Shown piece by piece: positions 3,224-8,428 of a stretch of DNA of 64,000 bases. Under the pieces are notes generated by a model. The model searched no databases and was not told the DNA's origin. It worked only from the letters and a program-made list of their open reading frames with translations. The position numbers and the translations under genes are program-made. Within the stretch, counting starts at the first letter, position 1. The number at the start of each line of letters is the position of its first letter. Source of the DNA: Escherichia coli. Its GTDB lineage: Bacteria > Pseudomonadota > Gammaproteobacteria > Enterobacterales > Enterobacteriaceae. Location of the stretch: assembly GCF_024502345.1 (NCBI RefSeq), contig NZ_JALDNN010000001.1; one strand, written 5' to 3'.

Positions 3224-5758
3224 TTAATTACTACCAAACATATCCTTGATCCAACCGGCTACACCGTCTCTGTCTTTCTGCTCTTGCTGAGCAGGTTGCT
3301 GTTGCGGCTGTTGCTGCGGCTGAGAAGACTGATCAAACGGATTGCCTGACGGCTGCTGCTGCATCTCACTCTGCTGGCACAGCGATTGCGGATCGCTGGT
3401 CCAGACCGGCAAGACACGCATGCCACCGCTGCAAACAAAGTTGCCGTCGTAGTCCACGCCCATATCTGCAATATCTTCTGGCGGAACAAGATTCAGCGGC
3501 GTTGGCGTCTGGTTAGCCAGATAACGCTGATAAATCGACATTGCCCCGCTGGCTCCATACAGTTTGGTCGGCTGGTTGTTATCACGGCCTACCCAGGTGA
3601 TGGTCACCGTGCTGCCGTCAATGCCTGCAAACCAGGTATCTACGTTATTGTTGGTAGTCCCTGTTTTCCCTGCCAGATGCAGGTTCGGGTATTTCGCCCC
3701 AAGCTGACGACCCGTACCACGTTGTACCACCTGCTGCATGGTCCATAGTGTCAGATACGCCGCCTGCGCCGGAACAGCGCGTTCTGCCTGCGGGAAGCTC
3801 TGATACAGCACCTTGCCATCTTCCGCGATTACCGAACGCAGTGCAGAAAGCGGTGCACGGTTACCACCGCTGGCGATGGTCTGGAACGCCTGCGCCACTT
3901 CGATTGGCGTTAAGTTCAACGCCCCCAGCAGCATCGCCGGAACCGGATGCAGCTGATCTTTCGGTACGCCCAGTTTGATCCAGGTATCCGTAACTGCAGG
4001 CAGCCCCAGCGCCATCCCCAGATTTACCGTCGGCACGTTCATCGAACGGGTCAACGCATCCACCAGCATCACTCTGCCGCTTTCGCTATAACGACGGTCA
4101 TCGTTCTGCGGTGACCAGACCTGGCCATTCGGCTGACGCAGCGCGATTGGCGCATCGGCAATCCACGTGTTCAGGCGATAGATTTTCGGCTGGCTTAAAG
4201 CCGTCAGATAAGTCGCTGGTTTTGCAAGGGAACCAATCGAACGACGCGCCTGCATCGCACGGTTGTAGCCCGCAAACTGCGGCTCAGAACCTCCGACCAT
4301 CGCACGAACTTCACCACTAAAGCGGTCGACGACCACAATCGCAGTTTCAAGATCGCTCAACTTACGCTGTTTCTTCAGTGCCGGAATGCCTTCCACGGCG
4401 GCTTTTTCTGCCGCGTCCTGGGCCACCGAGTCAAAGGTAGTGAAGATCTTCACGCCGGAGAGATCTTTTACCTTATCGCCCAGTTTTGCCTGCAGCTCCT
4501 GACGCACCAGTTGCATAAAGGCTGGCTGAGGAGAGATCACCCCACCGCGCGGCTGAACCCCCAGCGGACGGGCACTCAACATGTCATAGAGTTCTTGATC
4601 AATAATCTGTTGCTGTTGCAGCAGACGCAGCACCAGATTACGTCGCTCCAGCGCCAGTTTTGGGTTACGCCACGGGTTGTAGATGGACGCCCCTTTCACC
4701 ATACCGACTAACAGCGCCTGCTGGTCGAGGCTTAGCTCTTCTACCGGGCGACCAAAGTAATACAAGCTTGCCAGCGGGAAGCCGCGGATTTCGTTGTCGC
4801 CGCTCTGACCGAGATACACCTCGTTCATATACAGCTCAAGAATACGGTCTTTGCTGTAACGCGCGTCCATGATCAGCGCCATGTAAGCTTCGTTCGCTTT
4901 ACGCCAGTAAGAACGCTCGCTGGAGAGGAACAGGTTTTTCACCAGCTGTTGCGTCAGCGTACTCGCACCCTGTACCGTGCGACCTGCGGTCAGGTTTGCC
5001 AGCACCGCACGTCCGATGGAGTAGAGGCTGATGCCGTCATGCTCGTAAAAATGACGGTCTTCTGTCGCCAGCAAAGTATCCACCAGCAAATCCGGGAAAC
5101 CACTGCGCGGCACAAACAGACGCTGCTCACCGTTTGGCGAAGAGATCATGGTGATCAGACGCGGATCAAGACGGAAAAAGCCGAACTGACGGTTGTTCTC
5201 CATATTGACGATCGTCGCCAGATGATCACCATCAAAGGTCAGACGCGCACGCACCTGCCCTTCTTTACTGTCCGGGAAATCAAACGGACGGCGGATCATC
5301 TCAATGCTGTTGGCCTGCACGGTAAATTCGCCAGGACGGGTCATTTTCGACACCTGGCGATACTGGGTCGCCTCCAGCAGCTTCACCATCTCGTTCTTGC
5401 TGATGGTCATGTCTGGCTCAAGGTTGACCATTCGGCCATAAACTGCCGCAGGCAGTTGCCAGACCTTGCCATCAATACGGCTACGAATTTTTTGATCGAG
5501 ATAAACGCCGTAAATGGCGATCAGCACGGCAAAAACGATAGCCAGTTTTAACAGCAGCCATAGCCAGCCGCGTTTGCCACGAGGCTTACGCCCTTTGCCT
5601 TTGCCCTTACCTTTGCGCGGCATCGGTTCTTCATCCTCATAGTCATCATAATCGTCGTAATCATCGTCATCTTCGTAACGACGACGGCTTACCTTTTGTT
5701 TGACCGGACGCGTCGGTTTCCCTTTGCGTCCAATTGGCTCGCGGTCATTCCCGGCCAT
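3224..5758 (-). CDS. mrcB: Penicillin-binding protein 1B (bifunctional glycosyltransferase/transpeptidase)
   Basis: Translation matches PBP1b: acidic [16 protein letters not shown]-terminal region, transmembrane helix, transglycosylase and transpeptidase regions ([13 protein letters not shown]). Start taken at MAGNDREP, inside the longer listed ORF. Confidence 0.9.
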
Positions 5759-5854
5759 GCTTTTTCTCCGCAATATTCAGGCGCAAAAGCCCGATTTTCT
5801 GTTCTTCTGTTGCAAGACAGAAGAAGATATCTCTCAAAATTTGTGCTCGATCGG

Positions 5855-5945
5855 TCCCCTCTCCCTTGAGGGAGAGGGTTAGGGTGAGGGTGAACGTGCG
5901 CGCTGATGCCCTCACCCCGGCCCTCTCCCACAGGGAGAGGGAGAA
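5855..5945. repeat. Intergenic palindromic repeat cluster (REP/BoxC-like) between mrcB and hrpB
   Basis: Nested inverted repeats CCCTCTCCCTTGAGGGAGAGGG, GGGTGAGGG...CCCTCACCC and CCCTCTCCCACAGGGAGAGGG; non-coding. Confidence 0.6.
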
Positions 5946-5953
5946 AACCAACC

Positions 5954-8428
5954 TTACGAATACTTTTTCGTCCGTCGCGTCGGTGCCGTGTTTGCCGGGT
6001 CGTCCGGCCAGACGTGTTTGGGATAACGCCCTTTCATCTCCTTTTGCACCTCACGATACGCCCCTTTCCAGAAGGCCCCCAAATCACGCGTGATTTGCAG
6101 CGGCCTTTGGGCAGGGGAAAGCAACTCCAGCACCAGCGGCACGCGCCCCTGGGCGATCGTCGGATTGGTGGCCTCACCAAACATCTCCTGCATTCTCACC
6201 GCCAGCGCGGGCGGGTTATCTTCATGATAACGAATGGCGATCCGGCTTCCCGTCGGCACAGTGTAATGCGCAGGCAATTCACTATCCAGACGTTGCTGCA
6301 TTCCCCAATCAAGTAATCCGCGTAGTGCCTGATAAATGTCGAGTGATTTCAGGCCGCGTAGTGAATGCACGCCGGTCATATGTGGCAGCAGCCACGTTTC
6401 CAGCGTCGCCAACAAACTTTCATTATCAACCGCAGGCCAGTCATATTCCGGCAACCACTTTGCGGCGCATAACAAACGCAAGCGTAGCTGTTCCGCTTCC
6501 GCCGTCCAGTTGAGCATGCTTAAACCTTTATCACGAATGCCATTAAGCATCGCCTGATGCAACTCGTCTTCCGAGGGTTTCGCCAGCGGCTGCACTTTCA
6601 CCGTCAGCAGACCGATTTGCAGCCGACGCCAGGCTTTCAGCGTACCTTGCGCGTCATCCCACTCCACAGTGTCAGACTGCTGTACCAGCTGCGGGCAGCG
6701 TTGTACTAACTCATCAATATCGACCGGCAGCGCCAGTAAAATCCGCGCATCCGGCGAGGCGCTGCCCTGCAATAATAACGGTGCGATCAACCATTCGTGG
6801 CGGCTTAGCGCGTCGTCGGCATCGAGCATCGCTCCCATGCCGTTTGCCAGTTGATAGCGTCCATTTTGCCCACGGCGATGAGCAATGCGATCGGCAAACG
6901 CCCCGGCAAGTAGCGGCGCGATAAGCGAACTGTCTGCCTCACCGCCGCGTACGTTTAAGCGTTTTAACAGTTGCTGACTACGTTGCTGCCAGGCTGGTTG
7001 ATTGCGCGAAAACGCCACGCCCAGGTCACTATTGCCCATCCGTGGCGGCTCTTCGAGAATGGCGGCAATTTTTGCCGCGGTAGCAGCTTCGTCGTCGTTC
7101 TTCGCGCTAACCAGCATTGCCGCTAAACGCGGATCGTTACCCAGCGCTGCCATTTTTTGCCCTTGCGCACTAAGCCGTTCACCCTCCAGTGCCCCCAGCA
7201 TTTGTAACAGACGTTTCGCGGCCAGTAGATTCACTACTGGCGGTTGATCCAGCCAGCTCATCTGCGCCGGATCGCTGCATCCCCATTGCAGTAATTCCAT
7301 CAGCAAACCGGAAAGATCGCTTTGTAAGATCTCCGGTTCACTTTGCGCCGCGGCGCGTTCTGCTTGTTCTTTGGCGATTAAATGCAGGCTGATACCCGGC
7401 TCCAGACGCCCGGCGCGCCCGGCACGCTGCGTCATGGATGCCTGGCTAACGCGTTGAGTAATCAGTCGCGTAAGCCCCGTGCGCGGATCAAAACGCGCCA
7501 CACGCTCCTGGGCACAATCCACCACCAGACGAATACCTTCAATGGTTAAACTGGTTTCAGCAATATTGGTCGCCAGCACCACTTTGCGCATCCCTTGCGG
7601 TGCCGGGAGGATCGCTTTTCGCTGATCGTTCAGCGACAACGCGCCATACAGCGGGCAGAGCAACACATCACTGCCGATGCGCGAAGCCAGTTGTTCCTGC
7701 ACACGCTGAATTTCTCCGACGCCAGGTAAAAATAACAGTAATGATCCGCTTTCCTGACGCAGCATTTCGGCGGTGGCTACCGCAACGGCTTCGTCAAAAC
7801 GCTGATGCGCGGGCAGCGGTAAATAATGGCGTTCAACCGGAAACGAGCGCCCTTCTGAGATGACGACGGGCGCTTCTGGCAGCATTTGCTGCAAGCGGTC
7901 GTTATCCAGCGTAGCCGACATAATCAGCAGTTTAAGGTCATCACGCAGACCTTGTTGCACATCGAGTAACAGCGCCAACGCCAAATCCGCCTGCAAGCTG
8001 CGCTCATGAAATTCATCGAGGATCACCAATCCAACACCGCTCAGTTCCGGGTCACGCTGGATCATGCGCGTCAGCACGCCTTCGGTAACCACTTCCAGGC
8101 GGGTATTCGGCCCGACGCAGTTTTGCGCACGCATCCGGTAGCCAACGGTATCGCCTGGCTTTTCGTTAAGCAGCTCCGCCAGTCGTTGCGCGACGTTACG
8201 CGCCGCCAGACGACGCGGCTCCAGCAGGATAATTTTCCCGTTAATGCCGGGATGCGCCAGCAGTTGCAGCGGCAGCCAGGTTGATTTCCCGGCCCCGGTC
8301 GGCGCACTTAATAATACCTGCGGCGCACAATCGAGAGCGGTAAGTAATTCAGGTAAGACGGCAGCAACGGGCAACGACGACACAAAACGCTCCAGAGGGT
8401 TAACATTCTTCGCGCCACATTGTAGCAT
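5954..8428 (-). CDS. hrpB: ATP-dependent RNA helicase HrpB (DEAH-box)
   Basis: Walker A GAGKST, DEFH motif (ILDEFHERS), helicase C-terminal motifs; K-12 synteny. True start may be a few codons inside the listed ORF. Confidence 0.9.
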   Translation of the reverse strand: MLQCGAKNVNPLERFVSSLPVAAVLPELLTALDCAPQVLLSAPTGAGKSTWLPLQLLAHPGINGKIILLEPRRLAARNVAQRLAELLNEKPGDTVGYRMRAQNCVGPNTRLEVVTEGVLTRMIQRDPELSGVGLVILDEFHERSLQADLALALLLDVQQGLRDDLKLLIMSATLDNDRLQQMLPEAPVVISEGRSFPVERHYLPLPAHQRFDEAVAVATAEMLRQESGSLLLFLPGVGEIQRVQEQLASRIGSDVLLCPLYGALSLNDQRKAILPAPQGMRKVVLATNIAETSLTIEGIRLVVDCAQERVARFDPRTGLTRLITQRVSQASMTQRAGRAGRLEPGISLHLIAKEQAERAAAQSEPEILQSDLSGLLMELLQWGCSDPAQMSWLDQPPVVNLLAAKRLLQMLGALEGERLSAQGQKMAALGNDPRLAAMLVSAKNDDEAATAAKIAAILEEPPRMGNSDLGVAFSRNQPAWQQRSQQLLKRLNVRGGEADSSLIAPLLAGAFADRIAHRRGQNGRYQLANGMGAMLDADDALSRHEWLIAPLLLQGSASPDARILLALPVDIDELVQRCPQLVQQSDTVEWDDAQGTLKAWRRLQIGLLTVKVQPLAKPSEDELHQAMLNGIRDKGLSMLNWTAEAEQLRLRLLCAAKWLPEYDWPAVDNESLLATLETWLLPHMTGVHSLRGLKSLDIYQALRGLLDWGMQQRLDSELPAHYTVPTGSRIAIRYHEDNPPALAVRMQEMFGEATNPTIAQGRVPLVLELLSPAQRPLQITRDLGAFWKGAYREVQKEMKGRYPKHVWPDDPANTAPTRRTKKYS

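Follow-up and report, generated by a model that had tools for sequence, protein, structure and literature searches.

A BoxC doublet in the hrpB-mrcB spacer of Escherichia coli: anatomy, strain variation and probable origin by insertion

INTRODUCTION

The dispersed BoxC repeats of Escherichia coli correspond to the PIT elements of the Maher laboratory and to the TMECO triplex motifs, of which 23 copies are recorded in K-12 (Holder 2015, PMC4666352). In that study, TMECO loci were more variable among strains than control loci, and the variation was read as instability and loss, with no association with mobile elements. The published picture of BoxC sites is one of passive 'unstable triplex' sequences that are lost only.

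Three other kinds of sequence invite comparison. REP/BIME (PU) sequences and REPIN doublets resemble BoxC in that they are extragenic palindromes found after genes, form inverted doublets and long hairpins, and are present in some strains and absent from others; BoxC has no sequence relation to them. REP sequences have documented roles in mRNA stabilisation and in the binding of gyrase and IHF. We know of no documented role for BoxC and, unlike the case of REP, of no RAYT-type transposase linked to it. MITEs such as ERIC/IRU share with BoxC a non-coding sequence of about 100–190 bp, terminal inverted repeats, RNA that folds back on itself, filled and empty alleles, and both orientations at one site. 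They differ in that target-site duplication is inconsistent for BoxC, whose core is a G/C block motif and not a pair of IS-derived ends; to our knowledge, BoxC, unlike MITEs, also has no parent IS element. Finally, intrinsic terminators and the stem-loops at Rho-processed 3′ ends are similar to BoxC in their stable GC-rich stems and in having an RNA 3′ end a few nucleotides past the last G block.

Here we analyse a repeat between hrpB and mrcB in a 64,000-nt stretch of E. coli DNA, referred to as the window. The element, its family and its exact locus are already published, under four names (BoxC, PIT, TMECO and HPG1–HPG2), and no function has been shown for the element, so that the significance of the present observations is small. 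The additions are descriptive: empty sites in sister species, which point to gain and not to loss alone at hrpB-mrcB; a second, oppositely oriented copy; occupancy of the same gap by BoxC or REP across several genera; deletion junctions of the slippage type at internal direct repeats; and an RNA 3′ end, known from published data, at the base of the hairpin. Such facts bear on how BoxC elements spread and on whether transcript ends are shaped by them. The explanation that we consider probable is that the repeat is a selfish BoxC doublet derived by insertion, with any effect of its hairpin on the hrpB 3′ end being a by-product.

RESULTS AND DISCUSSION

Six G/C blocks are arranged as two units facing each other

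Between positions 5857 and 5941 lie six blocks of 9 nt each that conform to GGGWGAGGG/CCCTCWCCC (Table 1). This pattern matched eight times in the 64-kb window, compared with 0.56 ± 0.70 matches expected from shuffles, and six of the eight fall within 5857–5941; the remaining two make up a small hairpin at 54768–54790. The minus strand of the repeat region is predicted to fold into a single long hairpin (−75.8 kcal/mol, z = −7.66) and the plus strand to fold at −68.3 kcal/mol (z = −6.88), and none of 200 shuffles folded as well. The nested inverted repeats that a preliminary description had placed at 5855–5945 are therefore present as claimed, and the repeat is real and beyond chance.

The type A and type B units of the doublet face each other over a 16-nt spacer and are flanked by short conserved arms, the whole forming an imperfect palindrome of about 110 bp. 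This is slightly more than the extent noted earlier, the arms (5843–5856 and 5942–5948) lying outside the G/C blocks and being conserved in other copies. In the predicted fold, the left arm pairs with 5946–5953. Each BoxC unit also contains the sequence required for a quadruplex (G3N3 x4), and a regex scan detected only these two canonical motifs, one per unit, in the 64-kb window.

Table 1. Positions in the window of the hrpB-mrcB element, its parts and its neighbouring sites
Feature	Position	Strand	Remarks
Published mrcB promoter: −35 TTGAGA 5837..5832, −10 5814..5809 (TGCAAC here, TGTAAC in K-12)	5809-5837	-	
Left arm GTGCTCGATCGGTC	5843-5856	+	Aligns with sequence flanking the fepB, gcvP and alx doublets in K-12; lengthens the stem
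Term-seq 3′ end (K-12 164636(+))	5852	-	Adams 2021, supplementary files 1 and 3
BoxC/TMECO unit type A: CCCTCTCCC-TTGA-GGGAGAGGG-TTA-GGGTGAGGG-T	5857-5891	+	TMECO no. 2, Holder 2015 Table 1
GGGAGAGGG or complement	5857-5865, 5870-5878, 5921-5929, 5933-5941	-, +, -, +	Sequence read
Canonical G-quadruplex motif GGGAGAGGGTTAGGGTGAGGG, HPG1 class	5870-5890	+	Regex scan; HPGQ no. 6, Kaplan 2016
GGGTGAGGG or complement	5882-5890, 5909-5917	+, -	Sequence read
16-nt spacer GAACGTGCGCGCTGAT	5892-5907		Loop of the long hairpin
BoxC/TMECO unit type B: CCCTCTCCC-TGT-GGGAGAGGG-CCG-GGGTGAGGG-C	5908-5941	- (read on minus)	TMECO no. 1
Canonical G-quadruplex motif GGGAGAGGGCCGGGGTGAGGG, HPG2 class	5909-5929	-	Regex scan; HPGQ no. 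5, Kaplan 2016
Right arm AGAAAAC (family-conserved) + CAACC, up to the hrpB stop codon	5942-5953	+	
hrpB stop codon (TAA)	5954-5956	-	Upstream boundary of the insertion site

The repeat is almost certainly a BoxC copy

Window positions 5941–5908(−) and 5857–5891(+) equal, letter for letter, entries 1 and 2 in Table 1 of Holder 2015, which are TMECO no. 1 (type B, K-12 164547–164580 (+)) and TMECO no. 2 (type A, K-12 164631–164597 (−)), and the K-12 and window sequences are identical over the whole element. In the quadruplex literature, these two units appear as HPGQ 6 (HPG1) and HPGQ 5 (HPG2), placed between hrpB>>> and >>>mrcB (Kaplan 2016, PMC5100583). Both units show the BoxC three-block motif CCCTC(T/G)CCC - loop - GGG(G)AGAGGG - TTA or CCG - GGGTGAGGG, and the element is intergenic, lying between the stop codon of hrpB and the start codon of mrcB (5758). 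As is the rule for BoxC pairs, a type A unit is joined to an inverted type B unit, with the TTA loop on the plus unit and the CCG loop on the minus unit. Four K-12 doublet loci were fetched for comparison: those at fepB-entC, ygfF-gcvP and alx-sstT align with the window copy, arms included, and the pair at lldD-trmL, compared with the window copy by eye, has the opposite arrangement of units. Megablast queries made of flank plus element located a median of 2 to 7 sites in each genome, indicating that the motif is not unique but belongs to a dispersed BoxC-type repeat, as had been proposed. Taken with BoxC/PIT/TMECO/HPG1–HPG2, the repeat has the same sequence, three-block layout, inverted A + B pairing, intergenic position, multiple copies and variability among strains, and nothing essential differs; its identity as a BoxC copy can be regarded as nearly certain.

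The earlier label had been 'BoxC/REP-type'. The BoxC part of it stands, given the identity to TMECO 1 and 2. The REP part does not, because the REP consensus GCCKGATGNCGRCGYNNNNNRCGYCTTATCMGGCCTAC found no match at ≤3 mismatches anywhere in the 64-kb window, which rules out a REP-type label for this repeat. Rfam contained no family for the repeat; a permissive Rfam scan returned only sub-threshold microRNA-precursor and similar hairpin look-alikes, which we judged to be noise from the long GC hairpin.

The window copy is not the longest form of its family. The spacer at hrpB-mrcB is 11 nt shorter than in the fepB-entC, ygfF-gcvP and alx-sstT doublets of K-12, which also have longer arms starting with the motif GATGACAA; only the inner 12–14 nt of these arms are kept in the hrpB-mrcB copy. 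Since the other K-12 doublets have both a longer spacer and longer arms, the hrpB-mrcB copy represents a short version of a composite element.

The element separates hrpB from a conserved block upstream of mrcB

The two neighbouring genes had been described as ending convergently. They do not: hrpB (5954–8428(−)) and mrcB (3224–5758(−)) both lie on the minus strand, in tandem and in the order hrpB to mrcB as in K-12, and because of this order the element is 3′ of hrpB and 5′ of mrcB. Shimada 2014 assigned a sigma-70 'constitutive promoter', TTGAGA-17-TGTAAC, to the hrpB>mrcB spacer, and the edge of the element is located 20 bp upstream of the published −35 box. A consensus scan of 5600–6100 on both strands found neither a promoter nor a terminator; the published mrcB promoter was not called either. 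When orthologous spacers from 80 enterobacterial species were compared, no insertion was found outside the segment bounded by the stop codon of hrpB and a conserved block, which starts at TTGAGAGAT and reaches the mrcB ATG.

Inside the conserved block (5756–5838) a separate, smaller hairpin was seen at 5802–5829(−), with the arms UUCUUCUGU and ACAGAAGAA on either side of a loop. Its structure is kept across 66 distinct enterobacterial orthologous leaders, 97% of the pair cells being canonical, a share that does not exceed 69% once the partners are shifted by 1–3 columns. Four upper pairs covary (for example GC 35 / AU 18 / UA 5, and at another pair UA 29 / CG 28), and the hairpin has no Rfam match. 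The published mrcB −10 sequence (TGTAAC) sits in the variable loop of the hairpin, and the promoter assignment is therefore not conserved across genera. The hairpin could be an undescribed structured element of the mrcB leader.

Several open reading frames overlap the repeat, and the mechanical listing contains four, of 68 to 136 codons: 5689–5931(−), 5745–5951(−), 5734–6093(+) and 5906–6316(+). That any of them encodes a small protein is extremely improbable. A Pfam search with all four gave no match at E ≤ 1, RefSeq annotates no gene there, and the frames either consist of the repeat or cross it together with the antisense strands of hrpB and mrcB. Moreover, the DNA that they span is wholly or partly deleted in many strains (by 12 nt, 64 nt or about 100 nt) and absent in sister species. 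The earlier view of these frames as artefacts of the repeat is borne out.

Alleles within E. coli include internal deletions, an empty site and an inverted copy

Among the 5,425 E. coli genomes with a match to window positions 5700–6000, 3,535 covered at least 80% of that segment; in its window form, the hrpB-mrcB element is missing from about 35% of the 5,425 genomes. Allele states were taken from fetched representative strains, in which four states were seen. The window and K-12 carry the full doublet, with a spacer of 195 bp between the genes. In O145:H28 RM13514, 12 nt are deleted exactly between direct AGGGWGAGGG repeats whose start-to-start spacing is 12, and in OkiPb01703, the direct CCCTCTCCC repeats located at 5857 and 5921 exactly bound a deletion of 64 nt, which leaves a simple hairpin. 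UTI 2/0, SCU-109 and B19695 have an empty site, consisting of a 93-bp spacer with no element at all. The same kind of deletion, again between CCCTCTCCC repeats, was found at alx-sstT. Judging from the junctions, these deletions would be the expected product of replication slippage across the hairpin; Holder 2015 termed the same outcome the 'palindrome effect'.

E. coli E69 carries a different doublet at hrpB-mrcB, in the opposite orientation, of the 'A mm' type and with other loops and arms. Among complete RefSeq genomes, CP53 matches this E69-type allele at 97.6% over the full query, and SCPM-O-B-8794 carries a deletion derivative of it. An in-place inversion was considered as the origin of the opposite-orientation allele and is ruled out: not only the units but also the family-specific arms and loops have the reverse orientation, and the sequences of these arms and loops are different. 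The nearby flanking bases differ between filled and empty alleles as well, and for this reason whole-allele exchange by homologous recombination may explain part of the pattern.

A further variant was noticed at another BoxC locus. In the lldD-trmL spacer of E. coli Res13-Sevr-PER06-05-b-A, a 35-bp palindrome, GCTGTCTCTTGATCAGATCTCCTGATCAAGAGACAG, stands in place of the central part of the BoxC pair; we take its arms to resemble the inside end of Tn5/IS50. The palindrome may be a transposon footprint.

Comparison with other species points to insertion into a permissive gap

The hrpB-mrcB site is empty in E. albertii, E. whittamii and Escherichia sp. MOD1-EC7003, and on account of these three the ancestral Escherichia state was probably empty. 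Escherichia sp. E1V33 has a form of the window-type element with the 64-nt deletion. In Enterobacter, Lelliottia, Leclercia, Huaxiibacter and others, one to three BoxC units or doublets occupy the same spot, the densest spacer (in one genome) containing 16 blocks in 511 nt. A Lelliottia doublet at the orthologous site is nearly identical to that of the window, including the spacer between its units, and is inverted relative to the flanking genes. In Citrobacter and Salmonella, REP-like palindromes are found in the hrpB-mrcB gap in place of BoxC; at the loci sampled, these two genera had hardly any BoxC blocks. Overall, small palindromic elements seem to have settled repeatedly in a permissive gap.

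The REP-like sequences were inspected at four loci, from Citrobacter, Salmonella and Leclercia, where REP (PU)-like palindromes such as GCCGGATAA...CATCCGGC follow the hrpB stop codon; in the Leclercia gap, the REP-like palindrome adjoins a BoxC unit. In several genera, an additional hairpin followed by a T-run lies between BoxC and the mrcB block.

As in a MITE, the hrpB-mrcB element has terminal inverted repeats, no coding capacity and both filled and empty sites. At fepB-entC, comparison of filled and empty alleles cleanly delimits 186 bp that end in inverted repeats and have a TAA on either side. At the hrpB-mrcB and lldD-trmL copies nothing clear corresponds to this TAA, and a target-site duplication, seen at fepB only, is not consistent across loci. 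The comparison at ygfF-gcvP was not clean, as the strain with the empty site was without ygfF altogether. We consider it likely that the hrpB-mrcB element arose by insertion. A BoxC doublet would have entered the gap of ~13 nt that separates the stop codon of hrpB from the conserved block upstream of mrcB, where it would behave as a selfish, non-coding, MITE-like palindromic element and would afterwards decay by replication slippage between its own direct repeats. We know of no transposase for BoxC.

A wider proposal, which is tentative and in our opinion doubtful, is that BoxC doublets with their arms (about 110–190 bp) are the replicating unit of an unrecognised MITE- or REPIN-like element that is mobile in Enterobacteriaceae by means of an unknown enzyme. 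If this were true, colonisation would have recurred within one short stretch of a few nucleotides that separates a stop codon from the following promoter, and the hrpB-mrcB gap would have been filled independently, in both orientations and with 1–3 copies, in Escherichia, Enterobacter, Lelliottia, Leclercia and related genera.

A published RNA 3′ end lies at the base of the hairpin

The preliminary description had suggested a transcript-end or mRNA-stability structure. The Term-seq data of Adams 2021 (PMC7815308) contain a 3′ end at K-12 164636(+), supported by 987 reads, classified as 'orphan' and located 94 nt upstream of the mrcB start codon. After conversion of coordinates (window = 170488 − K-12 coordinate), this end falls 5 nt past the last G block and within the lowest helix of the predicted hairpin (Table 1). 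It is a weak end and was observed under a single one of the three growth conditions; to judge by where it stands in the files, this would be M63 medium. RNA reading through from hrpB would form a hairpin of about −76 kcal/mol, which probably serves to mark or protect a minor 3′ end of hrpB, either by blocking 3′→5′ exonucleases or by pausing polymerase. We consider the chances evenly balanced that the hairpin has a role in forming the mapped end, with the blocking of exonucleases as the presumed cause.

Whether the hairpin could instead be a selected transcription terminator or mRNA stabiliser, ending hrpB transcripts and insulating mrcB, has to be weighed against the same data. The great stability of the RNA hairpin and the K-12 3′ end at its base would fit such a role. 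So would the situation at lldD, where TMECO 17 is followed after 4 nt by a similar 3′ end within a Rho-termination region (Adams 2021), considering that Rho-terminated transcripts are trimmed back to stable stem-loops, as Adams 2021 relates from Dar & Sorek 2018. However, an intrinsic terminator has a GC-rich stem-loop directly before a U-tract, and no U-tract follows the hairpin, the stem being succeeded by GAUCGAGCACAAAUUUU; the scan of 5600–6100 likewise contained no terminator-like site on either strand, and typical terminators have stems several times shorter. PIT elements were without terminator or promoter activity in the reporter tests of Hoyne & Maher, as far as these are recounted in Holder 2015. 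Furthermore, the element is dispensable in the many E. coli genomes and the three sister species described above, and it occurs at this spot in either orientation and in variable copy number. Most of the other BoxC loci examined show no 3′ end at the positions searched: none was recorded at those of tauD/hemB, adk, zntA/tusA and frlR/yhfS or of the gcvP and alx doublets, and at ppiC the terminator belonging to the gene itself ends immediately ahead of TMECO 20 (Adams 2021). A selected terminator or stabiliser is, on this evidence, unlikely.

We favour the reading in which the hairpin of an inserted BoxC doublet can fall together with the end of a transcript, the simplest account being that exonucleases are blocked, and is not a general or selected terminator; its effect on the hrpB 3′ end would be a by-product of the insertion. 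The suggested transcript-end or mRNA-stability function is thus retained only weakly: the low-count Term-seq end at the hairpin base speaks for it, and the lack of a U-tract, the negative reporters and the absence of the element in many strains speak against it.

A much stronger 3′ end was noted in the fepB leader at K-12 624680(−), with 103,563 reads (Adams 2021). The distance to the fepB-entC doublet is 4 nt, and the end is on the upstream side of the doublet, unlike the pattern of simple hairpin protection.

Non-B DNA structures are possible but lack support in vivo

The blocks of the doublet could also act at the level of DNA. An intrastrand triplex, a switch between G-quadruplex and hairpin, or a cruciform might regulate the mrcB promoter or promote local instability. 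Each unit has the three-block layout of a triplex in addition to its G3N3 x4 motif, and the window contains only these two; in vitro, single-stranded oligonucleotides formed an intrastrand triplex as judged by CD and NMR (Holder 2015) and switched between quadruplex and hairpin as judged by CD (Kaplan 2016). The short distance to the published mrcB −35 box is consistent with an effect on the promoter, and the greater variability of TMECO loci than of control loci is consistent with instability. On the other hand, the duplex form gave no triplex signal, DMS footprinting in vivo detected no protection, and TMECO correlated neither with gene function nor with the distance to the nearest ORF (Holder 2015). 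The deletions are explained by slippage between direct repeats within the hairpin, for which a triplex is not required, and many strains dispense with the element. Ideas of this kind are possible but unsupported in vivo, and we consider a regulatory or destabilising role of non-B DNA at this locus very unlikely. The origin by insertion of a selfish BoxC doublet accounts for the locus in our preferred reading.

Plasmid and phage records, and a hairpin after aroP

A search of a plasmid collection with window positions 5840–5955 matched 96 records. Among the matches listed, those of full length are in records that are 0.4–4.9 Mb in size or carry hrpB, and look like chromosomal sequence filed as plasmids; one smaller matching record that was opened contained flagellar genes of chromosomal type. 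Other matches in plasmid records, at 90–95% identity, came from Klebsiella (34), Enterobacter (15) and Citrobacter (7). If real, these would qualify the published statement that BoxC is absent from plasmids. In a phage collection, matches occurred only in two 'UNVERIFIED' Campylobacter phage records, A18a (MG065686.1) and A11a. What matches is the lldD-trmL region of E. coli with its BoxC pair, and a phage-borne BoxC was rejected as almost certainly contamination or misassembly.

The small hairpin that accounts for the two remaining block matches in the window has the form CCCTCACCC-GTACA-GGGTGAGGG and is located just after the aroP stop codon. In 13 lower-ranked genomes that were sampled, homology ends at the last base of this hairpin (54790, or 54787 in one of them), and a query that includes the downstream GPH:cation symporter gene was at least 80% covered in 53 of 5,417 matching genomes. 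Since homology stops at the hairpin and few genomes cover the query, a strain-specific island begins there.
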